64,000 nucleotides of DNA from contig RSEE01000010.1 in NCBI GenBank assembly GCA_003971905.1, positions 434,001-498,000 on the forward strand. The letters run 5' to 3'. A program made the translations under genes and the position numbers. This document shows positions 1 through 61,970 of this stretch, in pieces (positions within the stretch are counted from its first letter, which is position 1; each line of letters opens with the position of its first letter). The notes under the pieces are model-generated. The model saw nothing but the letters and a program-made list of their open reading frames with translations. It ran no database searches and had not been told where the DNA came from. This DNA is from Moniliella sp. 'wahieum'. Lineage: Eukaryota.

Positions 1-1408
1 CGACCCTTTCTGGCGACCTAGTATGTGCGAGGAGCGCGGAGCAGCATGCATAGGCACGTGCGCTGGAGCGACGCAAGCGATATGGTATTAGCAGCAGGAC
101 AGAAACTACAGAAGCAATAGGTGAGCTTTGCCACGCATGCTAAGCGCTTAGGCTAAGCTTAGCGCTAATGGGCGAGACAGCGGCGGGACTGACAACATAG
201 GACAAGTATACGGCGTATCGAGTACAACTGGCTAATCCTTGCCTGTTATGCGTTACGCGTTACGCGTTACACCGCAGGGATTAAGCGCCAACAAGCCCAC
301 ACCTGTGGCACAGACACTGTGCCTAGGACTGGAACGACTTTTCTAGGCAGACGGCATGGTGGCGATCGCTTGTCGCATGCCCATGTCAGCCTCAGGCGAG
401 GGGCGGTGGGTGCGTACAAGCTGAGAATTCTACTGTGCTAGCAGGCGCCGTCCCACACTATATCGGGGAAGCTAGTGCCAGCTAACGTCTAACGCTCGTG
501 CAGGTCCCTATGTATCAGCCACAGCAACAAGCGCATCACATACATCAGGCCTCAGGCTCAGGGGCAGGCATCATGCATCATGCATCATGCATCAAGTGAT
601 TCTCCAGATCGAGCCCCCAGCGCCTGAGCGCTCCGCGAGCGCCTCAGCCAACGCATCCTCAGACTGGCCAGAGGCCGAGTGCTCAGTCTCAAGAACGAGC
701 GCCTGGGGAGAGAACTACTGACACTGACTTCCTAATCAAGTCATCGATGACTGGTATCGGTGAGCCGGAACGGAGCAAGATGGCGTTCGGTGCCAGTGGT
801 GCAAGCTGGTGCAAGACGGCGGGTGCACACGGTCGGATGTGCAAGACGATCGCAGGGTGCAAGAAGCGACACTCGGTTCTAGACAACCCTTTGATCCGCC
901 CCACTCCCGCCTCGCACAGCGGCCAACCGCGCCGGCGTATCCCTCGCCGCCCAGCCACAACCGGCCACTGATGATCGATGAGATCGATGAGACTATCCTT
1001 TCCCGCGCGTCCACGCTGTCCATGCACTCCCGCCTGTGCCCCGCCCGCATCGAGTACTGAGTGCTAGTACCGACTGACCACTTTGCTCCGAACCAATGCA
1101 GGTGCGCTGTCAAATGCCAGACAGGAGAAGTAATGTTGGACTTAGCCTCAACGTCTTCGACGTTGCTACTGCACTGATGCGATCGCTGACAAGAGCAGAG
1201 CAGCAAAGCGGCTATACTCCCGTCACGCATCACGTCATGATACCGACCAGACGACTACCAAGCCCACTAGTCCTGTACGCAATGCCACGCCCTACAGCCG
1301 GTTGGGCGGCAAGCTAGGACAACAGAGGAGCACAGCTGGACGAAAGGAATTGTTGCTTGTTCTTCACTCCCTCCAGTTACCACCCCCTCGCCCCCACACA
1401 CGCCTTTC

Positions 1409-3057
1409 ATGGACTCCGTAAACGATCTCTCCAAAACGCCCGACTCGATGCGCCTGATGCCCCGCCCGGGTACAGGCGCCAATCGTTCCGCCAGCACTAC
1501 TACTGGGTGGGGAGCCTCTGACTCAGTCTTTAACCTTGATCCCAACTCCAGCAAACAGGCGCTCACGGGTAATCCCACGTCCTTGGATGGGGTGCTCCAC
1601 CATCCTTATTCCCTCCCTGGCGGGCCCAGGGAAAAGCCTCAATCTTGGCTGGCAGCTCACAAAAAACTGCTGTTAACACTGGTCGGGGTGCTGGTCGCCC
1701 TCGCTGTAGCCCTTCCCGTTGGTCTTGGTGTCGGTCTGAGCAAAAAGAATACTCATGGAAGCGGAAATACCTCCAAGCCCAACAGCCCAGCACTCGACAG
1801 TAGCGGCAACGACCCCAGCAAAATTACCCCCCTGCCGTTTTGGGACTGGGCTGACAACAATCGAAAAGTCATGGGTGTATCTCTTGGGGGTGGCTGATTC
1901 TTGAACGTTGGATCGATGAGGATTGGTTCACCCAATATGCTCCTAATGATTGGGACGAGTGGCACTTTACCCAAACTATCGGCTCCAATGCGTCTCAAGT
2001 CCTGAGCGAGCACTATGACCAATGGGTCACTGAAGACGAGGTGGGACGATGTATCAACATGGAGTTAACCAACTGCGTATTCCTGTCGGATTTTGGCCGT
2101 TCATTCCCCTCGCAGACGGGGAACCGTACAGCAACTCGACCCAACTGCACTACCTCACTCGTATGCTCGGTTGGCTATGGAAGCGCACATGTACGCCGTT
2201 ATCGACCTCCATGGCATGCCTGGCTCTCAGGTACGTCACTTCCCTTATCCCTTTGGTAGCATCTACATGCAGCATGGTTCCTATGTTTCTGACCCTTCTC
2301 TTTTTTACAGTCGGGTGACCAATCTTCGGGACTCAACACGACCAATCCCACATGGTGGAATCAAGAAAACCAGGACCGATCAGACCAGACGCTGGCGTCT
2401 CTCATTACTTGGCTGTCCTATAACCCCTACAAGTCCGTCGTCAGCGCCATCTCTCCCGTCAATGAGCCCAACGGCGTTTTCCGCAGCACGCCAGCTAACC
2501 TGAACGTGACTCAAGCATTTTATGAGCGGCCGTACGAGACACTGCAAAAGGCTGGGTACAGTATGTTTTTCCACCATGGTTTTGCCTCAAATCCGGCGAC
2601 GTATTGGAAACCCTTTGCAACAGGGAAAAATGGGTCCATGCTTATCATCAATGACATCCGTACCCCGGATGGTACCCTGCTGTGAACAACGTGACGGAGA
2701 TTAACCAGAGAGTCTGCAAAACGGTGACTGATTATGATGGGTTCCCTGTCCCGATGGTCAAAACGGAATACTGTGTGATCTCGGGTCCGACGGATTCGGC
2801 GTGGAACAGCCAATACTATGCTACCAAACAGCAGCCTATGCTTCTGGAGCAGGATCCTTTTTCTGGACGTTCAAAGTGATGAATTCCACTTCGATGGTCC
2901 AGGCTGAATTGCCATTGAACCAAATGCATTTTCCTTCCTTCAACAAGCAACACTGGGGACCATTCCGTCCATTGGCACAGGCCAGTCTACGACCCAGTAC
3001 ATTGCTGCGCTTCCTAATCCAGCCTGTGGTGCGATGACCCCTACATACAACGCCTGA
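1409..3057 (+). CDS. Glycoside hydrolase family 5 exo-beta-1,3-glucanase-like protein with N-terminal membrane anchor (intron ~2231-2310; several indel frameshifts)
   Basis: Motifs read across frames: GVSLGG(W)LILERW, HYDQWVTE, GVNQLRIPVGFW, IDLHGMPGSQ, ISPVNEP (acid/base Glu), GSFFWTFK. Hydrophobic segment LLLTLVGVLVALAVALPVGLGVGL. Stop TGA at 3055-3057. Confidence 0.85.
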
Positions 3058-4407
3058 ACGCTTTATCCATGTTTGTATCGAGCAGAGCGCATCGTGCCCC
3101 TGAGATGTTATGAAGTGGACGATGCACCGCGTATCTCTTGACTGAAGTTGGTTTCCTCTCGTTTTGACTTGGCCTTTTCCCTACGGATTATCAGCCCCTA
3201 TCCCCGCTCCCTCTTTTTGCTCTGCCCAGGCCGCCATGATGTTCCTGACATTGTGGTCGATGACTTCTACTGTGTACTTGTTATCGGACTGTGCTACTTG
3301 TGTCTTTTGCATTTGTGTTATGTTGCCGAATGTGCATCCCTCCTTTGTACTGTGCGTTTCGTATATTCACAACGATGTTTCCCCCTTCCTGTTAGATTAT
3401 TTGGGTACATATATGTGTGTAGGCATCAGACGAACAATATCGATAATGGGAAGAGATGAAAGCTTTAAGGCATAGAGACGCAGGGGATGAGGCTTTCGTT
3501 TTCAAAGCTCGTAGGTGTGGGCCGTGGAACTTCGACGTGAGGAATGAGAGGTAGGGAGATATCTCCATATTATTGTCTACTACTTTTACGACAGGGTTGC
3601 TGTGCATTCCTTCGCTGCCCATATGACGATGAGTGAAGCAAAAACTAATGCTGGCCTTCTCTAGTTTGTGTAGCGATTGTGGGAGACCAGAGGCCGTCAT
3701 TGAAAAGAGGGTAGCAGTATGGTTTAACGTTTATGTTTCTCGATGACCCTTGGTCATTGTACCATCGCACATGCCTATAATGGTTTGTTCAACAAGTGTG
3801 GTTGTGTCGCCACAGATAAGTACACTTCAAAAGTGTTTTCCTTTTTCACAGTACCGCTATATTCAGCTTTTAACTCTCTCACGTCACTTACCAAAAGAAC
3901 TTTAAAAGGTGAACGGCCTCCCAGGACCTCGTTTCTGGGAGGAGTATGTCATACTCCTCAGCTCTGCTGGAAGTCCTTCTCATCTATTCACCGCCCTATT
4001 TCCTTCTCTCTTTCAGTGTATAAATCGTTGGCTTCCTTGGCACTTGTTGGTTCTATTTTTCTACCATCCTAATTCGGCTCCTGTCACGTTACAATGTGCG
4101 TCAGCTCCTGCAGTACTACTGGTCGATCACGTGGAGCGGAATCCGACAAATTCCGATACTTGTGGTGCGCAGTGCATTACGTGGTCCCCCGATGATCGAT
4201 GATCGATGATCGTTGGCATCGATGAGCTGCTGAGCAGGACTGAGCCGTTGCGCCACTGAGCTGGCTGGCTTTATTGCCTCAGTAGCTCAACAAGGTTTTG
4301 ATCTGGGCCACAGCGACATCTCAGAGCCACACAACAGCGTTGCTTTGTCCCACCAAATCGCCGCTATCTCTGCCATTCGCTTCTTCCTTCCCCCTTCCTT
4401 GCCACCC

Positions 4408-5289
4408 ATGTCCGACCCTAGCAAGTCACCCTTGGGGCAGAGTGCCCTCCCTGTCAAGGTGTTCAAGCCGCCATCTGGTAATGCTGGTACGTCCCACCAC
4501 TGGTCCGTGTCGCGCGCGCTTCACAAGTCTGCTCCCAACTGACCCAGCCCTCTTTATTCACCAGCTCCCCCGCCGCCACCCCCAGAGCAGGGAATCAAGG
4601 CCACCTCTGCCAATACAAGCCGCATTCAAGGACCACATCCAGCAGAGGCATGGGCCCGATGCGCCCATGATGACCAAGGCGATGCGGGAAAAGGAGATGG
4701 CCAAGCGTCGTGCTGGGCGCAAGGTGTACTCTGAGGTGAAGATTCGCATTCGCTTTTCCGATCGTACTCAGATTGAAACGACCTTGCCGGTAACAGCAAC
4801 TCTGTCCCAAGTCTACGATTTTGGTCCGCAGCTCGGTCATGCTGCTGCACAATCAACCTCGTTTACTCTCTTCACATCCCCGCCCAAGACAGACTACAAG
4901 GAGTCTGATCGACGCTCGCTCAAGGATTTGGGATTTGTGCCAGCGGCCGTATTGAGTGTGAGGTGGGAGAATGCAGCGTTGAACAGTATGTCGCTAAAGC
5001 TCTGTTCTTCTGCTTTCATTCGTGCTGACTAGTTCTCTCAGATCCTTCCACCGCCGCGCCCTTGCGCACCGATTTAGCATCTTCTGCTACTGACTTGCCT
5101 CCGCCCAAGCAATTTGATGAAAGCCAAGCTGGCCCTTCCACATCAGCCTCTGCTCCGGCGGCCACTGCAAGTGCTGGTTCCAAACCTATGCCGAAGTGGA
5201 TGAAGGGTATCATCAGTACGTCGCCCCCTCCCCTCAGACTATGATCCATGATCGTTGACATTGTCTTTCAACATGCAGAGAAGAAGTAA
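4408..5289 (+). CDS. UBX-domain Cdc48/p97 adaptor (Ubx4/ASPL-like C-terminal region), 3 introns
   Basis: VKIRIRFSDRTQIETT...VYDF...FTLFTSPPK...SLKDLGFVPAAVLSVRW is a UBX fold; terminal KPMPKWMKGII-KKK. GTAYGT...YAG introns near 4487, 4987 and 5217. Confidence 0.75.
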
Positions 5290-6420
5290 TTTGATCTCTA
5301 CACACTTCCATGCAAATGGTGCAACGAGTTCAACGCGGTTTATATAGTCAACAATCCATTGACTTTCAGGTCAAAAGAAAAGGATACACAAGTCAACCTG
5401 CAATGGGCTGGAAGGTTGGGGGGGGGCAGATATACTGAAAAACAACCTTGCTCAAGCTATGCCGTTATAGTCTTGCAGTTGAAATACTGTTGGTACGAAC
5501 GGCTAATGCTTTAGGAACAGTACCGGCGTACACGGCACTTGTCCCGCAATTCGGGAGTGATCCGGGCATCCTGACTACTAGCCTTCCGAATGGCATGGTC
5601 CACTGCTTACTGTTGATCCCATACTTGCTCAGGGATTATCCATCACATACGACATCGGACAGAAAAGTAGCACAGAATCTGCCCGACGAGGAAGGGACGT
5701 GGACGAAATCCCATGCACACTCATCGCCCAGTCTTTCCAACCCTTGCAATCCTCAAACCCCGTCATCAGGCTTACCGTTTCGGATCGTCAATGACAACAA
5801 ACGAACTGTGATCCTCAAATCCATGTGCCACCCGCTGCTGCTGTCTGTGGTGGCGGCAATAATGGTGGCGGGGATGCTCAGGGCGCTCAGGCCAGCATTT
5901 GAAGCTTCAAGCTTCTGGGGCTCAGGGCCTCAGGCCTCAGATTCCTCAGACTGAGGCCTCAGATGCGCCTCGCATCTCAGAGGAGATAAGGGTGACCGGT
6001 GGTGCACGATGGGTAAGCTACCCGGTAACGTTCGAAGACGACATGCATGACAATGGACAGGCCGCAGATTGAGGTGTTGAGCTCAGTGGTGGGAGGTTAG
6101 TTGGACGTGGATGCCGACGATAGGGAATGCGACTTAGTGGCAGGCCCATTGATACTGACCGATTGACCAGCCTCAGGGGGCGCTGGCACCCTTCAGGTTT
6201 GCGCCAGACCCAGGAATGCAATTATGAAATGTCAATGGATCAACTTGGTAGATGGCGGAACGCTGAATTCCGCTGATGGGGCACACGCGTCCAAAGAGTA
6301 ACCCTACAGCGTTCATATGCTCACAGCCTACACCGTGCCCATACTCTCCGCACCACCCTACCTTGGAACCACCTTCCTACCACCAACACCCTGATTGCGT
6401 CGCTTGTGGCCCTCCCCGCC

Positions 6421-9400
6421 ATGGCCGCGCCTATCTCGTCTGCCATCGGCGTCCTGTCGCTTCTGGACGAAGACGATGTCGATCTGCAGTCCTATGCTCT
6501 CGAGAAGCTTAACACTATTGTCGACCACTTCTGGGCCGAGATTGCTGACTCTGTGTCCAAGCTGTACGTCTTCAGTGCCCCCCTTCTCTTCGGTCTTCCA
6601 GCCACTGACCCCGCTGTAGTGAGACCCTATACGAAGATCCCTCTTTCCCACATCGTCAGCTCGCCGCGCTCATCACCTCCAAGGTTTACTTCCACCTCGG
6701 TGAGTTTGATGACGCCCTCACGTTTGCCCTTGGAGCTGGTCCCCTGTTCAAGCCGGTCGAGGATCGTGATGACGAGTACACCACCACCGTCGTGAGCAAA
6801 GCCATCGACACGTACATTGATCTATCTCATAAGCCCGACTCTGCTTCCGCAACAGACAAGACATTCCGTGAAGGCCTCACCGCCATCGTTGAACAGATGT
6901 TTGACCAATGTGTTCACGATGGAGAATACAAGCAAGCTGTCGGCATTGCTATTGAGGCCCAGCGGATCGACGTGATCAAGCGTGTATTTGAGGCGTCCCG
7001 CGATGTGGCCCTGCTGACTTACATCCAAGATGCCGCCATGGGTGTCGTTCAACGTCTTGACTTCCGCAAGGAGCTTCTTAATACACTTGTCGAACTGTAC
7101 AAGTCCCTCTCCTCGCCCGACTACTTTTCTGTCGCACAATGCTTCGTGTACCTGGCAGAGCCTCAGAGGGCAGCTCAGCTACTGGTTAACCTGACCAACA
7201 AAGCGTTTGACCCTGCCTCGGTTAAACTAGAGAACACAAGTGACGATCCTTTGTTAATCGTCTACCAAGTCGCCTTTGACTTGGCCGAATCAGCCACCCA
7301 AGAGTTCCTCGAGTCGATCCGCACCACGCTTAAGACCCACGTGAAAGATACACCGGCCCCAGCCCCTCCCGCTGCCGTTCCCTCCTCGACAGACACGGAC
7401 GGCGACGTCGCAGTTACTGAGGATGACCCATCCGACCCCCCTGGTTCAAAGGCAACTCCCTCTTCTGTATTGCAACGAATCCGCGCCATTCTCAAGGGTG
7501 AGGAGAGCATCCAGCTGTACCTCACGTTCCTCAAGACGAAGAATAACACCGATCCTCTGATCTTGAAGAACATCAAGGAATCGATTGATGGGCGCAACAG
7601 TGTGTATCACACTGCCATGTCCCTTGCCAACGCATTTATGAACGCAGGTACAGCTTCGGACGAATTCCTTCGTAACAATCTTGACTGGCTGATCAAGGCA
7701 TCCAATTGGTCCAAGTTTACTGCCACCGCCGCTTTGGGTGTGCTGAACCGCGGCAATCTCAAGGATGGAATTGACATTTTGCGACCCTACCTTCCCCGCA
7801 GTACTGGGTCCAATGCTTCGGTATACCAAGAAGGTGGATCGCTCTACGCCCTAGGTCTGATCCATGCCAATCATGGCGGAGAGGTGCTTGAACTTTTGAA
7901 GAACAACCTGCACAGCAGCAATGAAGTGGTTGTGCAGCACGGTGCTGCACTGGGTCTGGGTGCCGCTGGAATGGCCACCGGTAACGAGGATGTATATGAT
8001 GAGCTTCGCAATGTTTTGCTCTCTGATAACGCCGTTGCTGGTGAGGCATGTGGTTATGCTATGGGGTTGGTTATGTTGGGCACGGCAAACGAGGCCAAGG
8101 TTGAGGAGATGCTCGAGTACGCTCGTGAGACATCCCATCAAAAGATCACACGTGGCCTGGCCATTGGCACAGCCATGTTTTACTACGGAAAACAAGAGGC
8201 GGCCGAGGGTATCATTAGCCAACTTCTCGCCGATAAAGATGCTATTCTACGATACGGCGGTGTCTACACACATCGCTCTGGCCTACGCTGGCACAGGTAA
8301 CAACTCGGCTGTTCGTCGGTTGCTTCACGTTGCCGTCAGTGATGTGAGCGACGACGTTCGCCGCGCGTCGGTGACGGCGCTTGGGTTCCTCCTTTTCCGC
8401 AACCCAACGCAGGTTCCCCGCATTGTCGAGCTTTTGGCTGAGAGTTTCAACCCCCACGTTCGTTATGGCGCTACTCTAGCGTTGGGTATTGCCTGCGCTG
8501 GCACTGGGTTGGCCGAAGCAGTTGCGCTGCTTGAGCCTATGACCAAGGACCCAACCGACTTCGTCCGGCAGGGTGCCTGCATTGCCTTGTCGATGATTCT
8601 TATTCAGCAGAATGAGGCGCTCAACCCGGCCGTGGCGGCGGCCAGGAAAACGTTTGCCAAGATCTTGTCAGACAAGCACGAAGAGACCATGGCCAAGTTT
8701 GGGTCCGTTCTCGCTTCCGGGATTTTGGATGCGGGTGGCCGGAACATGACCATTTCCCTTCAGTCGCGCGGTGGGTCAAACAACATGCCAGCGATTGTAT
8801 CCATGGCACTCTTTACCCAGTTCTGGTACTGGTTCCCCTCTCGCCCATTTTGCTTCTCTGGCATTTACCCCCACGCCCTTGATTGGCTTGACGCGTGACT
8901 TGCGTGTACCCGACTTCAAGTTCATCTCGAACGCGCGTCCGAGTCTGTTCGCCTATCCGGCCCCCACCAAGCCCCCTGTTCAGAAACGCGCCCAAAAGCT
9001 CGAGGTGGCTGTGCTGTCCACGACGGCCAAGGCGCAGGCCCGTCAGCGGACCAAAGACAAGGCCCGTCGGATTGAGGAAGGCGGTGATGACATGGAGGTT
9101 GACGATGCGGCCGCCGACGGCGCGATTGGCGGGGACGAAGGGGCAGAAAAGAAGGAAGATGCCCAGGGGCGCAAGAAGCGCAAGCCTGAGTCTTCGTTTG
9201 AGGTGCTGCACAACTATTCCCGTGTCACTCCTGCCCAAGCCAAGTTTGTTTCCTTCCCCTCTGAGGGTCGTTTTGCCCCTATCCGCAGCCTGGCGAGCGA
9301 GGAGAACGATGTTTACGACATTAGCTCTATCTTGTCCAACCGTCGGCTGCTGGATATCGGTGAAACACCCAGCGTCTCTGGCCGAGCCACACCGAAACCC

Positions 9401-9841
9401 ACCTCCAACTCAGGGGACAAGAAAGAAGAGCGCAAGGCGGCAGCTCCGGGCGAGGAGGCCCGTGCCATCTTGGGAGCTCGAGCGATTGCTTCGGGAGGTG
9501 GGATTGTGCTACTGATTGACCGCAAACCGAGCGAGCCTTTGGTCGAGCTTGACCTTGGAGTTGACAAGGGCAACGCGCCTGCTGACGAGCCTCCTGCCTC
9601 GGATCCTGCGGCCTCGGGGGACAACGCTCCCGAAGCGAGTGGGGCGACCGCGATGCTGGACGACTCCGAAATTTCGCCTGAGGATGCGCTGGCCATCGCG
9701 CGTGCGATGGAGATGGATGAAGAAGACGGGGATGATCCCGATGAGCGCATGGGCGTGGATGAGCCCCAGAAGAAGGACAAGAAGGACGACAATCCACCCC
9801 CACCGCCTCCTCCTGGCGCGGGCGATGGCACCGCTAGGTGA
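6421..9841 (+). CDS. RPN2: 26S proteasome regulatory subunit Rpn2 (intron ~6563-6619; frameshifts ~8270, ~8838)
   Basis: SAIGVLSLLDE...YALEKLNTIVDHFWAEI, NLDWLIKASNWSKFTATAALG, RRLLHVAVSDVSDDVRRASV, ILDAGGRNMTISLQ, FTQFWYWFP, AVLSTTAKA. Confidence 0.97.
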
Positions 9842-10105
9842 ACATAAGAATATTGCGGCCTGGTCCGGCGCTATGTCATGCAGCCAAATTGAATCGCCAA
9901 GTAACTGGCTCCCTTGCGGATGCAAAATAGTATCAGGTAGTCGTCTCTATCCCAGCGGAAGGTAACTGCATCGTGTCCATGGCCGTGCATTGGCCCGTCA
10001 CGCGTCACGCGTCACTAACGTTATTAAATAGGCGCGAAGTCGCTTGGGGAAGAAACATGCCCGTTGAAATATTCATTCTAATACCAAAATTCTGCTCCGC
10101 GCCAC

Positions 10106-19662: not shown

Positions 19663-20654
19663 GGCGACGGGGGGAGGGTGGTGGGTCGCGAGGTGGGGTT
19701 GGCGCCCAGAGCGTCTCTTAGCGGCGGCGTGTGCGTGTGGGGCACAGCAACACGGCGGGCGCGACTGGCGCCGTGCCGGAGAAGGAAGCGGTCTGTGGGG
19801 TTGCGTGGGGGCAGCCAGGGGTTGTCACCGGGGGTGGTGGCTACGATGGGTGAGTGCCTGTGAATGTCGCAGTGGTGCACGCGACACTGGCCCTGTGCTG
19901 CCCATGCAGGCACCCGCACGGTGCATGTGGAGCAGAAGGCGAGCGAGCGAAAACGCACACTCGCCGGACATGGCCCTGAGCGCGAGCGTATTAACAAACC
20001 AGCTGCTAGCTCTGAGTATCTCCTGACTACATCCTGCGGGCCCAGTAGCTGGCGATGCGGGAGATGGGGGGATGGAGATGGAATTCCACAGCTAACAAAA
20101 AGCGCTACCGATGGGCCGTGATGTATAACAGGCTCCGGGCTCGGAGGCCAAGAGTGGAAGCCGTGGAACGTCTGGGATGCACTGCCCCCATGCACTGTGT
20201 GTATCGGGTCACGTGCAACTGAAGCTTGAAGGCCGATGGACTCTGGACCACTGGTGGTCAGCACAGGACTTACTCAGTGAACAGTCGGGGCTAATAAGCG
20301 AGGGAGATCAAGCTTCAAGGTCCTCTGTCTTCCAGAGACGGGGAAATGGCAAGATTGTGGGAGGAAACAAGACGCATCATCAGGCCTCTCAGGCCCTCAG
20401 GCAGGGAAGGAAAAAGCAAAGGGAAGGGGAAGAGCGAGATCAAGGCGACCATCGATCACAAGGTATGCCCAGAATTGGTACTTTTTGGAGCGAGCATATT
20501 CCATCAAGCCCCTTTTAGGTCTGAGCTCAGAACTCAGTCTGAGTACTGAGACTCAGTATCAGTGTAACAATGGGGGTGTAACATGTAAGCTCTAAGTTGG
20601 AGAGCAGTGTCATGCTCATGCATCATGCATCAAGCCAGTGCACCACTGTTGTTC

Positions 20655-24890: not shown

Positions 24891-27601
24891 GTTGTGTGCG
24901 GAGGAAGAAAGGGGGACGGAAAACGGGTGGCGGTTGAAAATGAAGGTGCGTTATATCTAGCCCAGGCGATGGGGAGGGGGCGAGACGGGGAAAGTAAAAG
25001 GGGGCTGTGGTCGGGTCCGCTGGCTTGAGGCAGTCGAAAGCAGGCCATGCCAGGGCAGAACAGGAAGACTGGCTGGGTGCGGACAAATGTCCGCTAGCCT
25101 GGGCGCCCAATCTAGGCGTGGGTATACTGGCCCCGTGCTAGCGGGAATTTCCGCGGCTCACCGGGACAACCGGACACTCGCAAAATGCGATAGTGCAACA
25201 CTGGCGCCAAGCGCGACAACTGGTTTTTTAGAACCCGCATTTTTCCTTCGCGGCTTAGTGGGGCACTAGGTAGCACTACGCCCGAGATAGTCAGGAACCT
25301 GCGGGACAAGTCACATTCGTAGCCTATCATCGAATATCGTTGTGCCTCTTCTTCTGCCAGCCCCGCCAAGGGCAGTGCATCTCACTGCGGTTTCAGTGGC
25401 CCCGAGGGGGAAGTAGTGACATGTGATTGATGATCCATGATGCATGATGCATGATGCATGATGTGCATGCATGGCGCAAGGATGTCACCCGTCACGCGCA
25501 TCACACATTATATATGCCGGCGGCACCCCTCCACTAGTTCATTAGTCACCGGTCCTTAATCGGCAATCACCGGACCGTCATCGATCATCGATCACCGGCC
25601 ACTGGTTACACTCGGTGTCAGTATCAGTATTTGGCGTGGGTTCTGGGCGTTGCCGCGGCTGTCGTCTGGTGCTTGCCGGTGCTTGCGGCGCACCGCAGAG
25701 CACTTTTCGACCAGGGCCAAGCGATTGTGCGCTAGTGCTGTCCCCATCATGCATCATGCATCATGCATCATCGATCATCGACAGTCGAGCTTAGGACCGA
25801 AGTCTCCAACCGGCCTAAGACCTAAGGCCTTCCTAAGGCCTAAGCGCCTAACCGGCCTAATCCTCGGTTCCTGCGTACCTAGTGCGGCGTCTAAGAAAGG
25901 TATGTGGTGTTGATGCATGGTACATGAAATTTGAAAGATCTAAGGCCATATAGATCACCAATCGACGATCAATCAATGTAGGTAAAGAAAAGATCGTATG
26001 TCGCGCGACCGGCGACCCGAATCCCCTGCGCCCCCTCCAGCCCTTGGCGCACTCGACAGGGAAGATGCACGATAGTCAGTGTCTAAGTGCCGCGTTAGAT
26101 TGCTGCAAGTCAGTCTTACACCTTTAGGCAGCTCTGGACGCCGTCTTCGCATCGCTCCGGCTGTCAGTGTTCAGCCCAGCAAGAACGATGCGCCTCGGCA
26201 GCGCTCCTGAGCGGACCAGCCTAAGGCGTAAAGCCGCTTAGCCTGCGCCACATTGTAGTGTGAGTCTGGAGTGCGCTGAGTGGGTAAAATACTGATGACT
26301 TCCATCGAGGCTCTAATACTGAGGCTCAGGCCTCAGGCGCTAAGGGCTCAGAGGCTCAGAGCTCAGACTGAGCTTCAAGGTCTCTCCTCGGGGCTAAGCG
26401 CTAAAGGCCGGAGGGTCTGAGGTACGGAAGAAGTATTAGTGGGGTGGGTGGGAAGGCTTGGGTGCTTGGGCCTGCTTGCACCTCCTGTTAGGCACAAGCG
26501 CGAGTCTTCAAGCTTCCAGCTTTAAGTCACTATAGTGAAATCGCTAGTCACTAGTGGTTATAGTGACTATTATAGTGACAGTCACTTGTGTCCATTCTCA
26601 AGCTCTCATATTCTCAAGCTCAAGCTCCAAGGCCCGTGACGAGTGCGCATGAGGCCTGAGCCTGAGCTGAGGCCCTGAGGCCCTGAGGGCCTTGCCAGGC
26701 CTTGCCTAGAGAAGTTACTAGTTACTAGTTATCGAGTTATCGAAGTTATCGATTATCCGATGTGAGCTGTTGAGCGCATGTGACATGTGGCATGTGAGCG
26801 CGTGCGCGTGAGGGGGGAGCACTGGGGGCTACTATACTACTACTACAGTTGGGGTCGTGGCGCTACTCGTTGAATCATGCACATGCATCAGGTGGGCAGA
26901 AGCCGTCTGTCCATGGCCTATCTATAGAGCATCATGCATCATGCATCATGCAGCACGCGCCACGCACCATGCATCATGCGTTTTGCATTATGTATCACCG
27001 TATCACCTCTGCCCCTGTACCGGACTTTGTCTCTTCTATCTCTCGGCTGAAAGATTGCCTTTATATTTCCGTGTCTCAGTCGGGCGGAAGTTGCTAAAAG
27101 AGAACGCTGCTTGCCCCGGACTTCAGTAGCTTCAGTCAGATTTCTTCCGGCAGGAACAGCAGCACTACGACAGCTATGCACGCTGAAAGTTAAACGTTAA
27201 ACGTTAAACGTTAAACGGTAAAAAGGACTACTGTCCTGCATGTCACATGTCAATGTCGTGCATGTCGCTATCGAATATGAACTGGTGACTAGCGTGACGA
27301 GTGACTAGGCTAGTGCCACAAGCCATGTTTAGCGTTGCAGGAGCCTACCCAGTGCCTACTCTGCCATTCCTTTTTCCCGTCCCCGACCTTCCGGGTCTTT
27401 TCTAGCTTTCAGCTTTAGAGTGAAGCCGAGGCCAGTCCTGGCTTGTATCCGGAGGCCGCAATGCGAACTCAACGATTGGCGCTTGGCGACCATCGACCAC
27501 CGATGAGCGCGATGAGCATCTATCATCAATCATTTTTCCCCCTTGCTTTGGTTTTGAAAATCGCATTACGTATTCCTATGGCCTAACCGATAATCCTCAA
27601 C

Positions 27602-27955
27602 TTACATGGTAGCCAACTCGCTTCGTACGTTCTTGACGTCCAATGTTTTCAACACACGATATGCATTGCGGAATAACACTGAGACAGAGTACACTGGGTT
27701 TCTCATTTCTACCACCTCTTTCGTAACGTGCAGCCTGTAACATGCGACTCGACTCCCGATGGGCTGTTCTTCGATAATCGATAATCGATCGGTCGTCATC
27801 GATCCATCTATCATCATGAATCGATCATATGTAGATAGACCGTGCATCACATATGCATAATGCCATGAATGGATGAATCCTTCTTGGTCGGGCATAGATA
27901 TCTTGGTGGTTGCCCTATACCTGCCACTACCAACAGGCCTTTCTAATACCCCCAC
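27602..27955 (-). CDS. Hypothetical ORF fragment (117 aa) next to a Helitron end
   Basis: Open, normal-complexity frame in an otherwise non-coding block; in-frame stop ~10 codons upstream; no recognisable motif. Confidence 0.25.
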   Translation of the reverse strand: MGVLERPVGSGRYRATTKISMPDQEGFIHSWHYAYVMHGLSTYDRFMMIDGSMTTDRLSIIEEQPIGSRVACYRLHVTKEVVEMRNPVYSVSVLFRNAYRVLKTLDVKNVRSELATM

Positions 27956-28154: not shown

Positions 28155-28321
28155 GTGGAACGGTGGCCGGTGGAACGGTGGCCGGTGGAACGGTGGCCGG
28201 TGGAACGGTGGCCGGTGGAACGGTGGCTACGGTGGCGAAAGGGGAACGGTGGCTAAGGTGGCAATGGTGGGGGGGAACGGTGGCTAAGGTGGCGAAGGGG
28301 GAACGGTGGCTACGGTGGCGA
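28155..28321 (+). repeat. 15-bp minisatellite (GTGGAACGGTGGCCG) x ~5, then degenerate copies
   Basis: Four perfect units plus a partial one at 28155-28227, followed by GGAACGGTGGCTA(A/C)GGTGGC variants. Confidence 0.95.
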
Positions 28322-28331
28322 CGCAGCACCA

Positions 28332-28390: not shown

Positions 28391-28801
28391 ACTGTGGGCT
28401 CTGTGAACTGTGGTGTGATTAATGATTAATGATTGGCCGCATTATGCATGACGCACGGTGAACTCATTGAGCACAGTCTCGGAGAGTTGAAGACATGCTA
28501 TTCTCTCCGCATATGGTAGGAAGGGTTGGGTTATTAATAATGCCGTATAGAAACGGGAGGGTACCCGTCGGGTGTATGAGAACTTCGTGTCAAAAAGTGA
28601 ACACCTTGCCGTGAACGTTGATGAACGCGTTGAACAACTGTAAGCTTATAAAGCTTTTTCCTGTTTTGGGCCACCGCGGGTCGCTAGTGTGTTTTGGCCA
28701 ACGTCTCCCTTATTCAGTCCCTCTCTTCAAGGCTTCAGGCCTGAGCCTCAGGCCCTCAATAAGCCTATAGGAGTTCAACCGTTGCCTTTTCTCACTACTT
28801 G

Positions 28802-29203
28802 ATGAGACTTTTGGAGTCCGGATGGTCCTCGAGGGTGATGCAATCGCACTGATGGTGGTGGTGGTGGCCCAAGCCATCCAGCAACGCCTACAGAGGAACT
28901 TCAAGCAGCGAGTCGCCACCAGGGGCTAAGCTGCGGAACAATAAGGGAAAACAGGAGAGATAAAACAACGGAGAACTCCTAGGCCTGAGGAGAAACTGAA
29001 GGGACATTGATGAAAGCACGAGCCACCCAATGGTTCAGCACTAGTACTGTTTTCTTTGTTCCGCAGCCTAGCCCCCGGTGGCGACTGTGGCTGCTTTTGA
29101 GATGTTCCTCGCGAGGCGGTGGTGGTTGGCGTAGACCACTGCTTCCACTACCACTAATGCAAATTGTGTGACCCTCGAGGACCATCAGGACTCCAGATCT
29201 CAT
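28802..29203. repeat. Imperfect ~140-bp inverted repeat with ~115-bp spacer (foldback/MITE-like)
   Basis: 28802-28941 (TGGAGTCCGGATGGTCCTCGAGGGT...AGTCGCCACCAGGGGCTAAGCTGCGGAACAA) aligns to the reverse complement of 29056-29203. Confidence 0.85.
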
Positions 29204-30036
29204 ATCACCTTCAAGCTTCAACTGTCAACAAATCTCAGTATACATTACTCACCGTACTAAACATACTCAGTATATACTCACGACTTTACCGTTGCCGAAG
29301 CATCAAGTGTTACGTTTACCGTGACTAAGGTGACTATAGCTCAACTCCTGGCTTTCAGTGGTGGTAGACCTCACAGTACTCAGTGGGCAGAAAGAACCTC
29401 CGGGGACCGGTGCCCTCTCTAAACCGTTTGCGAGAGGACCACGCAGAACAGATCTCACGTGTGCCATGCCAGAGGTGCCACCCAGGGTGCACGGTCCAGC
29501 CTCGGTCAACGTTCAACAGGCTCGTCCATCGCTATTCCAACACATCCATACGGTTCAAAACGTTCTCATTGTGAAATGTATCGAGGCATAACGGCGAAGG
29601 AGTTGAATGTTGATTGGCAGTGACTTGGGAGGACTACACCTCTAAACTAATAGCGGAAGGTGCTAATATAAGACAGGATGAGAGATCATGTCGATCATGG
29701 GACTCGGAGTTGAAGGTGCGTTGGAGCTAATAGAGTTGGGTTTGTTGGGCCTGGGTGCAGCAGCATCTATTATTAGTCGATAGAACCTGGGCCATGGGCC
29801 CGTGACGATACAGTGAGCACATAGCGGATCATTCAACAGAAGCGATGTTGTGGTTCCGGACGAAGATGAAAAACGTCCCATGCATAGTTGTATTCGCATG
29901 ACCTGCATGACTGATGTTAATCACATCGCCATATATTATTGCTATTGCACCACACTCTAATATAACGGCTTGAAGTGCGGCTTGGGTTGGGCACTTCACA
30001 ATCGTCTACTCTCGCACACCATCCTACCGAGCTTTG

Positions 30037-35967: not shown

Positions 35968-36291
35968 CGAGTGGTGTCGAGCACAAGGCAGGCAGGCAGC
36001 CCAGGGCAGCCACCTGCGTCTGCCGCGTCGCCCACCTGAGCGCGTCCCGAGATCCGGCGCAGAGCCTCGCCGGCACTCGCGCCGTGCCGGAAGAATGCAA
36101 TTGCGATGATTAATGAGCGTCATGCATGATGCATGAGCCTGCGTCTTTCGCGAATGCACACGCAGGCCGTGAAAGTTTCCCAGCCACGCGCGCGCCATCA
36201 TCGGTGGGCGCACAAGCGCGTCGCGTCGGGCGGACGCGGTGGACCCAGTCCAGTGCCTCGCTGCTCCACCACCCTGCCGCCACCAGCTGCC

Positions 36292-39552: not shown

Positions 39553-39960
39553 TATGGTCGTATGCGAAGAGATGTAATAAACGGTCAGAACCAGGATTGC
39601 GTTGTAGCCACCCCCCGTCAGGCCTCGTCGTCGACACCATCGGCGTCGTCCAAGTCTGTAGGCAGGCCAGTGAGCACAGCAGTAGGCAAGCCGTCGGGAG
39701 AGCCTGAGCGATAGCGGAGGACGCGTCTGCTTGCGTAATGCATAATGCGCGCCTACGCGCCTGCTGTCTACCATCGACTATCCCCGACGCGATGATCGCC
39801 TGCTGAACATTTCACGCCCCCGTGCTGTGGACCTGCTGCGGCTCTGTCTCCTCCTCCTTGCCCCTTCTTCCACCATCACCGATACCACTCACCGCTCACC
39901 GCGCCTCCACCGCCGCACGCGTTACGCTGCATGGTGACGACGCCCTTCCTGCCGACTGCC

Positions 39961-56112: not shown

Positions 56113-56443
56113 AAACAAAATGCACCCTCATCTTCATCATGTATTTACAGAGTCAAAGGTTGGGACAAAGAATCGTTTCGCTCATTCGGCGTGTGCTGCT
56201 TGTTGATGCCAAAAAGTAACCCAATCGCCGAGGACAGGTATATAAGGACCGCCTGGTGATCTCTTCGGCGCATTCGCTTCCAAACTCTGGATCCATAGCT
56301 CTTGGCGTGGATTAGTAGTAAGAAACATTTCAGTAGTATACATGTGGGCTGTGACATGTGAGCGCTGTGAGCTCCCAACTCAGTACCCATTCCTTTTGCC
56401 CGCTGCGGCTTGGTGGAACAGTAACCGGTAACCTCGTGTTTTT

Positions 56444-56532
56444 TTCCCTAGCAGTGGCATGGCGCTGCCAAAAAGTAACACACACAAGATGAGCGTAGAG
56501 TTTCCCTGTCCCCGCCTTAAGTTCTGTCAATG
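56444..56532 (+). mobile_element. Short 3' fragment of the CRE-like retroelement (stop codon region plus 3' UTR)
   Basis: TTCCCTAGCAGTGG..GGCGCT.CCAA..AGTAAC..CAAGATGA..GTTTCCCTGTCCCCGCCTTAAGTTCTGTCAATG matches the reverse complements of 61387-61692 and 62863-62962. Confidence 0.7.
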
Positions 56533-56731
56533 TAATGATATGAATGCATAATTAAGGCGATTAAAGCTTAAAGGCTCTTGAGTGCGCCCTCCGGCTGGTA
56601 CATAAACTTTAAGGGAAAGACAGCTCTCTCCTCTTGGTTCTGAGTATTAAAGAGAGCACTCGGTGACCGGCACGTAGAATGAAAATCATCAGGCTATATA
56701 TCTCTGATGTACACGTGACATATATAGGCGT

Positions 56732-58758
56732 TCAGTACCAAATGGGCAGGAGCAGCAAGAAGTGATGAATGATCAGGAATAGGAAAGGGAGGGACAGAAA
56801 GATGCGAGACAAAACAGGGCCATTGTAGCTTGCCTGGGGAACTAATACCCCTCCAATGAAGTGACGTGATTGATAATACAGAAGCCTAAGGCTGAATGGG
56901 TGATTCGGCCACCTTCTCCTGTGTGGGTGGCTTTCGATGTCAGTGGCAGCTGGAGATTCGGCCCCCTTTGCATCCTGGCGATCGATCTCTGCACGTCCAG
57001 TGTCACTAACTGGGCCATCCAACGTGGCCTCGGTCTGGACGGCAGCGTATGGCGAGCGAGCACGGATGGCCGCGCCCTTCCAGATCAAGATGAAAGGAAG
57101 GGGGATGGCAATAGCGATCAGAAGACTGAGCAGTAGACCAGCGTACTGAAAGCCCATGTTGTTGAACATCTGGTTGGTAAACAAGGGGAAGCTTGCGGCC
57201 ATTAGGTTACGAATGAAGCCTTGAGCACCAATGGCTGAGGCACTCGACTCCCCGTACGCATCAGTCAGATATGCCTGCACCGATTGGAAAATCCACACAA
57301 TTCCGATCAGAAGTACAGCGAGGCCGATTTCGGGGGCGATCCAATGCACCCACGTGTAGGGGGCCGTAAAGGAAAAGATGAACATGCCAATAGTGGATAC
57401 AATGCCCCCTGCGGCGCCGTAGTACAGGCGCACCTCGGGTATGGCATGCCCACCGTGTGCGTCGGCAGATTTCTGGTAGAGGTAAGAGTCGTGGAAAAGG
57501 AACACCCAGCCAATGAAGGTGCCAATGATTGGACCAATGTAAGCTAGACCGGTGTTTCCTTCACCCCAGCCACGCTTTGTGGAGAAGGCAATTGGAATGG
57601 CACTGAAGAGGGCAAAGATCAAACTCCACGTATGACAACCAGAGGGAGAAGAAGAGGACAACTGGTTCCTTCACAATCATTACCGCCGCCGAGTCGTAGA
57701 GACCTTGAGAAGTTCCTTCAAACTTGGCGTTTCCAATTCATCTCGAGAGCGATAACGGTTATCGCCTGTCTCCTTGCGCAGCTTCTTGGCTCGGCGCGAA
57801 AGGAGAGCACTGCCACGGGGCTCACGCAAGAAGATGCACTCTAGAATCAGTGCGGTGCCATTGATGGCCATTTGAATCCACTCGATGGCGCGCCAGCCCA
57901 GATTGTGGCGTGCATCAATGTATCCAGCATATAGAGGCGAAGCAGCTGTGCCCAACACGGCGACAAGGGTGAAGAGCGCGACAGGTAGCCCGATCTCGTT
58001 GGGACCCAGATTGAAGCGAGTGTTCCCGGAATGATCGTCACACCGGCTGCTCCAAAACAACCCGAAAAGAAGCGGCCAATAACAATTGTCCAAATATTCT
58101 GCGCCTCAAAGAGAGCCACGAACCAAATGACAAACCCAGCGTAGCAGATCAGGTAACGGGTTGCGCCCCAACAAACTCGGACACGGGCCCCAGAATAGGA
58201 GGAACCTACGAAGGAGAAAAAAAATCAGCAACGCATTTCCCCACATCAAAGCGAAAGCGGGTATAGTGGTGAAATACGTACCAGGGCAAAGGCTACGTTG
58301 AACGCGGTAAAACCCACACGTCCAAGTTCAATTCCTGTGTGTAATCCATCTCATGGTTAGCATTGTTCCCCAAAAAATAGGGGCATAGACGTACCAGATG
58401 CATGCAGCTCCTTGCACATTCTTGACACCGGAACCATAGGCGGCGGTTGCCAAACCGATGAAGAGGCACATGGCGCACAGGAGACTGGTGTTGGTCCATT
58501 TTTTCATCTTGGACCAGTTCATGGGGTTCAGGGGGTCGTCAGGCCCATCCCAGTCGACGAGGATGATCTTGCCCTCCGATACCTCTTTGAGGATATCCTG
58601 GTTAAGGTGGGTTACAGAACCATGATCGATACTGGGAGATGCTGTATGTGTCTCCGCCTCGGATGTTGCAGCTGCCTCGGGTCAGCGTCGGCTGTAGTGT
58701 ATTGTTCCTTACCAGGAAAGATGTCCGCGCGGGTGTTTGATTGCTTCTTGAGGACCAT
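56732..58758 (-). CDS. MFS drug:H+ antiporter (DHA1 family); introns and frameshifts; 3' end uncertain
   Basis: VDWDGPDDPLNPMNWSKMKKW, IVIGRFFSGCFG, LGWRAIEW, PEVRL, YLTDAYGESSASAIGAQGFIRNLMAASFPLFTNQMF, IRARSPYA. Confidence 0.92.
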
Positions 58759-60076
58759 TGCAGGCAAATAAGAGCCGTCGCGATAACGGAGAGAGTTAAT
58801 AAGATGTGATGGAGATGGAAAAAGATGCTGATAAGAGTGGAAGGTAGAAGTAGTAGAGGTCGCAATCTGTGTTGGTGAGATGCTTTCCAACACGACGGAG
58901 AGGCACTGCTTTAATACAAGAACCGTCTGGCCAGATACAACCCCTATAATACTTTACTAATGAAGAGTAGCGAGACATAAAACATGGCGTGCCGCTTGCC
59001 GGCGAAACGTTTGAGACTCTAAATCTGTTGGACCTAGGAGTTAGGCCTTACGCCTTCTTGGACCTTAATAGGCCTCTTGAAGCTTGTGAAGGGGTTTTGA
59101 TCTTCTTAGACCTCAGATCTCAGACCACATTTTGGGCCCTGTCTGTACTGCGCATCAAAAAACCGGCGTAAGTGCTCCGATCCCCCTCATTTTCGCCTCT
59201 ATCCCATCTGGTGAATAGTTAGTACTAGCAGGAGAAACAGGAATTCGTCACCGTTCCTACACCCCCGCGGGGCTCCAGTCGGACCTGGAACGATGTATCG
59301 AACCGTTCTCTCCCCCGCATTGTTGTGGTGAACGCATGAACCGTGGATGATGATCGATGACGTCGATGACAGTGGCAAGTGGGCTCAGAGAGTGCGCTAG
59401 ATACTCAGGATGAGCCTGAGGCCTGTGAGATTTGAATCTGACGTCTGATGGATCTGAGATCTCTGAGATCTGAACGTTGAACGTTGAACTTCAACCGTCA
59501 ACGTGTCTCAACGCGTGTGAGCTTCAAGCGTCAAGCTTCAAGCTTCAAGCTTGAAGACACTGAACGCCGCTGATGATGATCGATGAACGTTGAACGTTCA
59601 GTTGAACGTGCGCTGAACTACCTTTTGGTACTGGTATTGAACTAAGCACAAATACTACCAATGGAGGACAAGTACAGGCATGTATTAGCTCCACAAGATG
59701 GTCTTTCCCCTTGGCCCTATTCATAGAGGGAGACGTACCCGGGAGACCCACAGCCAAGAAACAAGCAGTATATAAGAGTAATAACAGTATAGGTAAATTT
59801 GTGACTAGGCCTCCCTATTGCCTGCCTGCCTCTGGTCTCAGTGCCTCCGCACGCCTCAGCACCGCCTCAGCACAGCCTGTGACATGCTGACATCCCTGGC
59901 AGTATGTTCATCATGCATCATCACTATACCACTAGAGCAAAACTAGCAAATAGCCCTAGGAAGAAGTACCTCTTTTAGTACTTTCATGAGTAACCGATAA
60001 CTCGATAACCGGTAACCAGACGCCGCCGCTATGGGCGCGCTATCGGCTAATTATATTATCGATCATTAATCGATAA

Positions 60077-60152
60077 TCATCGATCATCGATCATCGATCA
60101 TCGATCATCGATCATCGATCATCGATCATCGATCATCGATCATCGATCATCG
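60077..60152. repeat. Heptamer microsatellite (TCATCGA) x ~11, the longest member of the TNA + palindromic tetramer family
   Basis: Ten perfect units at 60077-60146 plus TCATCG. Confidence 0.98.
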
Positions 60153-60484
60153 TCAACTAATATATTCCTTCCCCACGCTTGTTGATCAACTTGTCATCGA
60201 TACAGCGTCATGGATCTGTTCCTTGCAAAAAGCCCCACGCCTAGTCAACCTCTCTTCTACCATCGATATACCATGGGAAATCGATTCCTTTTGGGGAAGT
60301 TCAACTGTACACACCTCGGTGCATCATCAGATGAGATGCTGTGAGAGTGTGCTTTCCGAAAAGTTGCGTGTTGCCGCAAGGTCAATGTGGAAAAATAACC
60401 CTGAAGGAAGGATATGTCTTGTGCCGCTGGCGTACTCACGCAACCACGTGCAAAAGCCAAAATCTCTATATGCTGTAACTGTAC

Positions 60485-60534
60485 CATTGACATGTGACAT
60501 GTGACAGAGCTTTAAGGCTGGGACAAAGAAACGC
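60485..60534 (-). repeat. Retroelement 3'-terminal motif interrupted by two CATGTGA heptamers
   Basis: CATTGA-[CATGTGA]2-CAGAGCTTTAAGGCTGGGACAAAGAAACGC versus CATTGA-CAGAACTTAAGGCTGGGACAGGGAAACGC at 61387. Confidence 0.7.
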
Positions 60535-61386
60535 TCTCCTGTACCCCCAACAGGCGAAGCACGGCGGGGCCTGTGGGGGTTGGTGGAAACTGTGGAGGAG
60601 CTGCAGCGAGAGACACAAGGGTGCGGAGAAACTGAGACCAGATCACTGTGAAGACAGCGTGGTGGCTTTTAAATTTTATGCCGTTGCTGCGCCGCTGTCG
60701 CGCTCTTGGCCCTCGCTTCTGCCGCAACCTATCGACTCACTTAGTACTCAACTGAGTCACTGATGCACTGAGTTACTAGTTACGGATGCCTTGATGCCGC
60801 GCCGTACAAAGTAACGTTGAACGTTTTCCAGTCTGAGGCCTGACGCGTGACGTGACGCATGAGGGCGGCCTGAAGCCCTGTGACATGTGACATGTGACAT
60901 GACATGCATGACATGTGAAGTGCATGTGAAGCTTTTGAAGCTTGAAGCTTGACGGTTGGAATTGAATATTGGAGCTTGAAGCTTCAAGAACCTCTAGCTT
61001 GAAGGCAGCTCTCGTAGCGAGCTTGCAGTGGCCTCAACGCCTCAGCACCTCAGTACCTCTGGTAATGCTGAGGCCGAGGCTGAGGCTGAGCAGCGCTTGC
61101 TCAGCTGAGCAACCCTCAGGCCTGAGGGCCTCAGGTCCCCTGCCGCTATTATCATTAGATTATCATTAGACGACTTGAAGCTTGACGCGTGACGAGGGGT
61201 CACCGGTCACCCTACGGATCCCTTTTTAAGCTCTGAGACTTCACCGATCGGCATGGCGCCCATCCCGGAGGCCTCAGCCTGAGGCCTCAGCCTGAGGCCT
61301 GATGCATGATGCATGATGTGTATGATGCCTGATCGAGATCTCGCTGACGTCCAAACCCTTATATTGATCCCTATATTGATCCCTAT

Positions 61387-61950
61387 CATTGACAGAACTT
61401 AAGGCTGGGACAGGGAAACGCTATACGCCTAAACTGTCACAGTCGGGGCTACAGCTACAGCGAGGGAGACCAGAATCGGACTACGCCAAGGGGTGTAGCA
61501 ATCGTTCGTGGGGAAGAAGCAAGAACAGAGGATATATGGTGCGAAGTGGAAGAAACAGGGAAGGAGCGAGACGCTCGAGACGAAGAATTTGGAAAATGGG
61601 AGCGAGATCAGCCAAACTATGACATAAACGGACCGGTTACCGGTTACTCAACTTGCGTGAGTTACTTGGTAGCGCCACTACTGCTAGGGAACCAGCAGGA
61701 TCGCCATGATACCAGGACCCTCTGGTGCTCGCCATCTGGTCCCGTACCCGATGTAGCGCATGTGGACACGGATGAACGCGGTAGACATCCGAGCGAGGAA
61801 CCATTTCCATTGAGATTCACAGTAGTCAACTATAGTCAAATCCTTCCAGTGCGCAAGCATCTTTCCCGCTGTCTCGGTGCCGTAATAGTATATCCTCGCG
61901 TCGTCAAAACCAGGAGGGGAAAACGGCTCTTGCGTGCATCCCTGGTACTT
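61387..61950 (-). mobile_element. 5'-truncated, degenerate CRE/Cnl1-like non-LTR retrotransposon (copy A)
   Basis: 61684-61950 aligns by eye to 62955-63203 (KYQG..PLVLTTRG..SQWKWFLARMST..GYGT.W..PEGP) with frameshifts; shared 3' terminus at 61387. Confidence 0.65.
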
Positions 61951-61970
61951 TATAGTTGAAGGTTGATGAC

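Follow-up and report, generated by a model that had tools for sequence, protein, structure and literature searches.

The 64-kb window analyzed here (the whole stretch from position 434,001 to 498,000 of contig RSEE01000010.1, assembly GCA_003971905.1) contains many short tandem arrays whose 7-bp units follow a single grammar, T-N-A plus a palindromic tetramer. The closest described systems are the target-site duplications and flank-templated scars left by cut-and-paste transposons and related enzymes. According to the available portion of PMC1131882, Transib stands alone among the DNA transposon superfamilies of eukaryotes in having 5-bp duplications and is represented in fungi by a basidiomycete rust; its targets are GC-rich and symmetric about the centre of the 5-mer (e.g., CASTG or CAWTG), the duplications of hAT elements are of 8 bp, and no iteration into tandem arrays is mentioned for Transib in that portion. 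Hairpins on the flanking DNA occur in hAT, Transib and MULE elements (PMC5499845, in the part accessible), and breaks capped by hairpins are made by DDE enzymes such as those of hAT elements, the MULE Muta1 and the domesticated yeast hAT enzyme Kat1 (excerpts of PMC5499845 and PMC4763223). A third relevant group is NuwaII (PIF/Harbinger, PHIS), known from two basidiomycetes, with the target C/TNA/G, in which N is any base and the cut lies 5' of T on both strands (PMC4482050, as far as its accessible text goes). Neither TNA-anchored heptamer arrays nor +7 scars in fungi were found described in the full-text literature that we have searched, a scope that leaves aside subscription journals and supplements. 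Unless stated otherwise, the counts given below come from this one window of assembled sequence, with open reading frames (ORFs) as a proxy for the gene map.

The grammar itself had been proposed in an earlier, sequence-only reading of the window, and its 13 groups of examples were all recovered where it had placed them, within 1-2 bases. Perfect arrays with a length of at least two periods + 3 numbered 21 for period 7, against 4, 4, 1 and 0 for periods 5, 6, 8 and 9, and period 7 took up 37 of the 101 rows returned by Tandem Repeats Finder (hand count). Among the 29 perfect period-7 arrays of at least 15 bp, 25 could be rotated to N + A-pal4-T (pal4 being the palindromic tetramer), a class that makes up less than 3% of heptamer necklaces; the four outside the grammar are at 39888, 46706, 63536 and 63856. 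The 10-mer core TNA-pal4-TNA, with the same N on both sides, was present at 101 positions grouped in 70 chains, which contained two TNAs (51 chains), three (14), four (4) or eleven (1). The comparison with shuffled sequence that the same reading had suggested, run here on the window with 200 dinucleotide-preserving shuffles (the null for this core and for the 12-mer described below), gave a mean of only 2.58 cores (sd 1.67, maximum 7). Junctions with other centres were far from equally frequent, since each of the other 15 XNY centres reached 2-14 positions; the counts of 14 for ANC and ANG look like the array of eleven copies read in a rotated frame. The enrichment was also limited to one spacer length among those surveyed (0-10): of the 167 TNA..TNA pairs at spacer 4, 101 were palindromic, while each of the remaining spacers had 36-75 pairs.

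The diversity within the grammar turned out to be wider than the at least 11 tetramers counted initially. Fifteen of the 16 possible palindromic tetramers are present (TATA is missing) and N takes all four bases, with G in 30 chains, C in 20, A in 11 and T in 9. Each N is used in proportion to the number of its TNA sites outside ORFs (607, 591, 299 and 292 for G, C, A and T). A weak and symmetric preference for G/C appears 2-3 nt outside the TNA (73% and 68% against a background of 52%), as for a dimeric enzyme.

The origin of the symmetry becomes apparent when the arrays are read together with their flanks. With u, v, w and x as the flanking bases and primes for their complements, a site uvTNAwx becomes either uvTNA-v'u'-uvTNAwx (left type) or uvTNAwx-x'w'-TNAwx (right type). 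In both cases seven bases are gained, of which five (TNA and two flanking bases) are a direct copy, and the same two flanking bases appear also as their reverse complement. Since the tetramer is thus made of the two bases that flank TNA plus their reverse complement, its symmetry is a by-product of the formation of the unit. The 51 chains with two TNAs illustrate the rule best. Extension into the flank, expected by chance in about 1 in 16 cases per side, was found on the left only in 20, on the right only in 19, on both sides in 2 and on neither in 10, and most of these last ten are one mismatch, a 1-base deletion or an extra TGA short of the rule. The extension of exactly one flank in 39 of the 51 points to the 12-mer uvTNA-v'u'-uvTNA, or its reverse complement, as the elementary product, and this 12-mer occurred 126 times, against 0.4 in the shuffles (maximum 3 in 200).

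The same result is reached when TNA is left out of the query. A search of both strands for any 5-mer X repeated around the reverse complement of its first two bases (X5 + rc(X1-2) + X5) gave 207 matches; in 126 of them X was nnTNA, and the rest look like rotated frames within long arrays. When the repeat is read as 4+3 instead of 5+2, which is formally equivalent, the search for a b c d c'b'a' a b c d found T at position c in 137 of 147 matches and A as the next base in 126 of these 137. Because both T and A are recovered by searches free of TNA, they must belong to the target and are not made by the event. In the six compound arrays (at 25747, 59464, 59577, 61176, 61293 and, with one mismatch, 60834), two different tetramers have one TNA in common, and in all of them the unit of left type lies to the left of that of right type. 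This order is what two independent events at one original uvTNAwx site would give. Some arrays are visibly decayed (26929-26997) and this, together with the chains that nearly follow the rule, indicates that the events differ in age. On sequence evidence, these observations establish the arrays as products of a repeatable, flank-templated gain of seven bases at TNA sites and not as conserved motifs. The sequence-only reading had already argued for a generating mechanism rather than a transcription-factor motif, and the dictation of the tetramer by two flank bases and their reverse complement bears this out.

The spectrum of junctions gives some further hints about the event. Direct repeats of uvTNA numbered 159 at spacer 2, 126 of them mirrored, and 10, 22, 33, 45, 14, 22 and 25 at spacers 0, 1, 3, 4, 5, 6 and 7; control centres in the same survey gave 6-45. 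In 17 of the 33 cases with spacer 3 the mirrored dinucleotide was accompanied by one extra base (hand count; about 1 in 8 by chance), which looks like an occasional untemplated base at the repair joint. N was identical in both copies in 101 of 121 cores. In 14 others it was complementary (TNA-pal4-TN'A, a perfect 10-bp palindrome), against 6 for the other two bases together. These N-switch junctions are located mostly at the ends of arrays and resemble mirror copying that went on beyond 2 nt; such a ratio is not expected from slippage and point mutation.

Several simple routes to the same structure were considered and discarded. If a palindromic target of 7 bp were simply doubled as a 7-bp target-site duplication, both flanks should show extension, but they did so in only 2 of the 51 chains. 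Plain duplications of uvTNAwx are not enriched either, the 66 non-palindromic cases at spacer 4 being at the same level as the other spacers. A tetramer derived from fixed transposon ends, as in a Tc1- or Harbinger-like footprint, is at odds with a tetramer that varies and follows the local flank. Several symmetric hairpin models with a 3-bp duplication were worked through by hand and never produced the second direct copy of the flank bases. A general excess of TNA-centred palindromes was also discarded; after masking of the tandem repeats it was mild (66 with arms of at least 4, against 43-66 for other centres), which indicates that the phenomenon is the gain of seven bases and not palindromes as such.

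As to the agent, we hold with about even confidence that the arrays are scars of a +7 insertion at TNA, caused by a cut-and-paste transposon with a 5-bp target-site duplication or by a related DDE enzyme. The starting point would be a double-strand break, or a pair of nicks, made sequence-specifically at TNA. In formal terms the event equals a filled-in staggered cut of 5 nt plus a hairpin, on the end away from TNA, whose opening 2 nt off the tip leaves P nucleotides. The most likely agent would be a transposon that enters and leaves TNA sites by means of a predicted enzyme of this kind, and the alternative a related, possibly domesticated, DDE enzyme. Since every new unit recreates the same site, repeated events would add identical units and generate an in-phase array, and events of left and right type at one site would generate the compound arrays. 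In long arrays, such as that of eleven copies, replication slippage may add to the growth.

Cleavage of the Transib/RAG type has the same two ingredients, a 5-nt direct duplication and a short palindromic addition templated by the flank (P nucleotides), and the 5-bp duplication has its counterpart here in the 5-nt repeat uvTNA around two mirrored bases (the 126 12-mers, against 0.4). Unlike in Transib, only one flank supplies the P nucleotides, which nearly always number exactly 2. Neither a Transib transposase, among the 75 ORFs scanned, nor ends resembling recombination signal sequences were found in the window. Elements of the hAT group target nTnnnnAn, and the base adjoining the element is replaced by its complement through a hairpin with a 1-nt offset. 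The excision footprints of hAT elements (Ac/Ds) are similar to the arrays in that inverted bases templated by the flank are found at the excision site. However, the arrays contain a 5-nt direct repeat with period 7, the surveys of spacers and periods gave no 8-bp class, N is mostly the same in both copies (complementary in only 14 of the 121 cores) and the ANT centre accounts for 2 cores. PHIS/NuwaII elements share the T-N-A target, here with all four N and 101 positions against 2-14 for other centres, but their duplication is of 3 bp and the gain here is of 7, and TNATNA (66) lies within the range of other centres (36-161). The flanking C and G of the NuwaII target are not seen here either (C is next to T in 19%), and the fixed PHIS ends GG..CC are not the source of the tetramer, as GGCC makes up 8 of 101. 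End joining by polymerase theta, and template switching onto a displaced strand, leave short direct and inverted insertions copied from the flanks, which vary in length and source and are not known to be tied to a trinucleotide. Direct and inverted copies of the flank are found here too, but with one dominant product at a specific site. What distinguishes these arrays from the known scars made of a target-site duplication plus P nucleotides is their sequence specificity, the nearly single product and the iteration into tandem arrays.

A number of observations weigh against a transposon as the agent. TNA is located at one end of the 5-mer and the centre of symmetry is N, not the third base as in Transib. 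A mirror copy from the TNA side was found in 1 of the 33 non-canonical cases at spacer 2, in comparison with 126 from the far side, and a transposon with hairpins on both flanks should yield both products. A single product dominates, apparently far more than in the mixed footprints of Ac/Ds. No transposase domain was detected in the 75 window ORFs scanned against Pfam, out of 121 with at least 130 aa (the 46 left out mostly overlap a longer ORF). Finally, two paralogous segments (61560-62010 and 62830-63270) are too diverged at their one scar to give the ancestral state, and the direction of change, a gain of seven, would rest on parsimony.

The absence of a transposase from the scanned ORFs, the position of TNA at the end of the 5-mer, the one-sided mirror and the single dominant product are the reasons to keep a transposon-free alternative, which we consider unlikely. 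It begins with a nick in one strand 5' of the T in TNA; synthesis with strand displacement would then proceed for 5 nt, followed by a 2-nt switch onto the displaced flap and ligation to the 5' end of the flap. The outcome would be a 7-nt mini-hairpin, x'w'-TNA-wx, converted into a +7 insertion at the next replication. This route gives exactly five direct bases and two mirrored ones, keeps N identical between the copies, takes the mirror only from the flank downstream of the nick, which fits the strict one-sidedness, and explains the left and right types as nicks on either strand, in keeping with their similar numbers (20 and 19). It also needs no element, in line with the lack of a transposase domain in the scanned ORFs. 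Against it, a hypothetical TNA-specific nickase is required. If only the T:A closure of the loop mattered, ANT, CNG and GNC centres would be expected as well, and these other centres reach 2-14 positions against 101. Besides, ligation over a loop of one to three bases is not an established reaction, and the model is our own construction.

Ordinary microsatellite growth, in which heptamers capable of forming hairpins slip more during replication so that only nearly palindromic units expand, is improbable as the origin of the arrays. They are indeed tandem and perfect, and copy number falls in a roughly geometric way (51, 14, 4 and the single outlier of eleven). The latter folds into a long imperfect hairpin at -20.5 kcal/mol, and slippage probably contributes to long arrays of this kind. 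However, slippage needs a repeat to work on, and 51 of the 70 chains are first duplications formed by a flank-templated rule that includes an inverted copy; this excess of first-step +7 events obeying the 5+2 rule already counts against it. Units independent of the flank would be expected, whereas one flank templated 39 of the 51, and the requirement for T-N-A, the restriction to period 7, the N-switch junctions and the compound arrays are left without explanation. As single-stranded DNA, typical arrays of 2-4 copies folded weakly (-3 to -7 kcal/mol) and had no advantage over shuffled versions of themselves (z between -1.2 and +0.7), so that the hairpin or cruciform role which the sequence-only reading had considered is not supported. 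A control pointed in the same direction: 121 metagenome loci (392 kb) chosen for containing a TCATCGA array hold 36 chains with other tetramers, about the density expected by chance, and 20 of these 36 have no flank extension at all.

Within these 121 loci the rule was seen only in two unrelated contigs of about 50% G+C, each covered over 624 bases, which contain compound arrays: TGA-TCGA then TGA-ACGT in L084 (301-355) and TCA-ACGT then TCA-TCGA in L094 (285-327). As their flanks obey the left and right rule, the process may exist in other organisms.

The location of the arrays relative to genes is relevant for a further alternative, namely that they are selected cis-elements, either bound by a dimeric factor recognizing T-N-A in register every 7 bp or forming cruciforms as structural elements of promoters. 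ORFs of at least 200 aa cover 50% of the window, yet only 5 of the 70 chains fall within them. The claim that there were none inside coding sequences is therefore sustained within the limits of the ORF proxy, with 65 of the 70 outside. One of the five, at 8889, is in frame within the C-terminal domain of RPN2, lacks flank extension and we take it as a chance match; the other four sit near the ends of ORFs. The chains concentrate in two gene-poor stretches (25.4-29.5 and 59.0-63.5 kb), and there are none between 42.6 and 56.3 kb, the region of the intron-split kinesin and PMT genes. This intergenic and often clustered distribution, along with the two-fold symmetry of the units, is what cis-elements might show. 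However, the exclusion from ORFs is equally well explained by the cost of a +7 frameshift, since scars can persist only where such a frameshift is tolerated. Moreover, tetramers of 15 kinds with all four N are dictated by the flank, so that nothing is conserved beyond T.A, one array has decayed to 77% matches (26929-26997) and folding is weak. A structural or regulatory role for the arrays is thus not supported, and we regard the cis-element explanation as very unlikely. Least likely of all is an artefact of sequencing, base calling or assembly, which would neither avoid ORFs (5 of 70 chains in half of the sequence) nor obey the flank-templated rule or leave decayed copies, and which would not appear as rule-obeying compound arrays in the two unrelated metagenome contigs.

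Returning to the preferred explanation, an event by a transposon or a related DDE enzyme, one candidate for a related element was found in the window. It is an insertion of 190 bp whose inverted ends are imperfect (TGTCAYAGT) and whose 5-bp target-site duplication, TAAAC, corresponds to TNA plus two bases. The insertion is missing from a paralogous copy, with the empty site near 62906-62911, and since it is filled in one paralogue and empty in the other, elements with such a target duplication do exist here (n = 1). Its removal by the proposed route would give TAAAC-GT-TAAAC, the unit of the array at 27189. We consider it a lead and not evidence, given the single case and a chance of about 0.11 of finding TNA at either end of the 5-mer. 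Neither the window nor the scan index yielded a further copy, and its end motif had 9 matches in the window against 8.7 expected. In the surrounding region a segment of about 310 bp is present twice in direct orientation (61648-61950 and 62919-63203), with 82% identity and 1.25-1.27 kb apart. A 45-nt motif, TGACAGA.CTTAAGGCTGGGACA..GAAACGCT, heads both copies, at 61390 and 62868, and is found in a third place, at 60503.

A broader and more tentative proposal is that a lineage of Ustilaginomycotina carries an undescribed TNA-specific breaking activity (an unrecognised or domesticated transposase, or a nickase) that acts genome-wide, gives an exact +7 product of five direct and two mirrored bases and, by striking this product anew, generates microsatellites from nothing beside genes, which would amount to a sequence-specific mutational signature. 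If the reading of the arrays as scars holds, this would be a rare case in which the birth of a tandem repeat can be followed at the level of single bases back to a defined molecular event, and nearly every array in the window would record the number of strikes on one site. The arrays would show, naturally and across a genome, how active a DNA-breaking enzyme is and which targets it chooses, and hairpin or fold-back repair in a fungus would have a clean signature in vivo. Promoters and other gene-flanking DNA of a plant-associated fungal lineage would also gain from them a fast-evolving variation in length. For annotation, the implication is that such arrays should not be taken for regulatory motifs.

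The window is fungal nuclear DNA that carries housekeeping genes split by introns: RPN2, Kae1/TsaD, a PUF protein, Rab GDI, SNF5, kinesin-3 and PMT. The highest match of the GDI protein in a homologue search had 95% identity, and the best named relatives were Thecaphora (74%), Pseudozyma flocculosa and Ustilago (73%), Tilletiaria (72%) and Malassezia (70-71%), all Ustilaginomycotina. Judging from these relatives of GDI, the source of the window is a smut-related lineage. The label of smut fungi used in the sequence-only reading is then roughly right, as the best named relatives of GDI are Ustilaginomycotina. Its supposition that intergenic heptamer repeats occur in other smut fungi found no confirmation. 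The share of tandem repeats is reported as 4.2-7.0% in five smut genomes and 11.2% in that of Pseudozyma flocculosa, with no repeat grammar given in the accessible part of the source (PMC4824034). In the window, four reading-frame segments make up RPN2 (6277-9841), and a similar division of the kinesin, PMT, GDI and SNF5 genes indicates many introns per gene. Their number is probably above that of Ustilago maydis. The coordinates of the arrays and of the 190-bp insertion are collected in Table 1.

Table 1. Heptamer arrays and candidate related insertion in the window (positions are those of the window)
Position	Strand	Unit or feature	Copies	Remarks
250..270		TTA-CGCG array	3.0	left flank extension
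568..594		TCA-TGCA array	3.9	
4190..4212		TGA-TCGA array	3.3	
5926..5940		TCA-GGCC	2.1	
9996..10015		TCA-CGCG array	2.9	
20616..20632		TCA-TGCA	2.4	one-base-short unit before array
25436..25463		TGA-TGCA array	4.0	
25578..25594		TCA-TCGA	2.4	no extension on either flank
25745..25781		compound, TCA-TGCA (left-flank type) and TCA-TCGA (right-flank type)	3.9 and 2.1	one TCA common
26713..26731		TTA-CTAG array	2.7	followed by degenerate TTA-TCGA units of 8-9 bp
26929..26997		TCA-TGCA array	3.4 perfect	then decayed (77% matches over 9.9 copies)
27189..27217		TAA-ACGT array	4.1	
27771..27789		TAA-TCGA	2.7	
28416..28434		TGA-TTAA	2.7	
36122..36136		TGA-TGCA	2.1	adjoins N-switch junction at 36120
59464..59489		compound, TGA-GATC (left-flank type) and TGA-ACGT (right-flank type)	2.7 (TGA-ACGT)	on one TGA
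59531..59556		TCA-AGCT array	3.1	N-switch (TGA) junction at end
59577..59598		compound, TGA-TCGA (left type) and TGA-ACGT (right type)		
60076..60152		TCA-TCGA array	11.0 perfect	longest in the window
60488..60506		TGA-CATG	2.7	
60879..60901		TGA-CATG array	3.3	variant units after
60935..60952		TGA-AGCT	2.6	
61176..61192		compound, TGA-AGCT (left type) and TGA-CGCG (right type)		
61293..61318		compound, TGA-GGCC (left type) and TGA-TGCA (right type)	2.7 (TGA-TGCA)	
61435..61624	+	190-bp insertion		candidate related element
61632..61647		TTA-CCGG	2.3	

Other repetitive stretches were found in the same gene-poor parts of the window. Three of them (26320-26700, 25810-25860 and 61030-61130) are dense in words of the CTNAG type (GCTCAGG, CCTAAGG, GCTGAGC) with periods 7, 8, 11 and 13, and look like overlapping or degenerate scars, +8 variants included. 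At 28800-29207 there is an imperfect palindrome of about 408 bp, with outer arms of 45 nt that are 80% complementary and an inner complementarity judged by eye. A clear target duplication was not seen around it, and it could be a foldback element, one resembling a miniature inverted-repeat transposable element, or a hairpin RNA gene. The repeat at 28155-28323 lies outside the TNA grammar; it consists of a perfect 15-bp tandem repeat (GTGGAACGGTGGCCG, 4.9 copies) followed by repeats of 57 and 26 bp made of related GGTGGC-rich units. A tandem repeat of 21 bp, with the unit TCAATGCCGATTCCAGTGAGG, occupies 61991-62118 in six copies with 87% matches.

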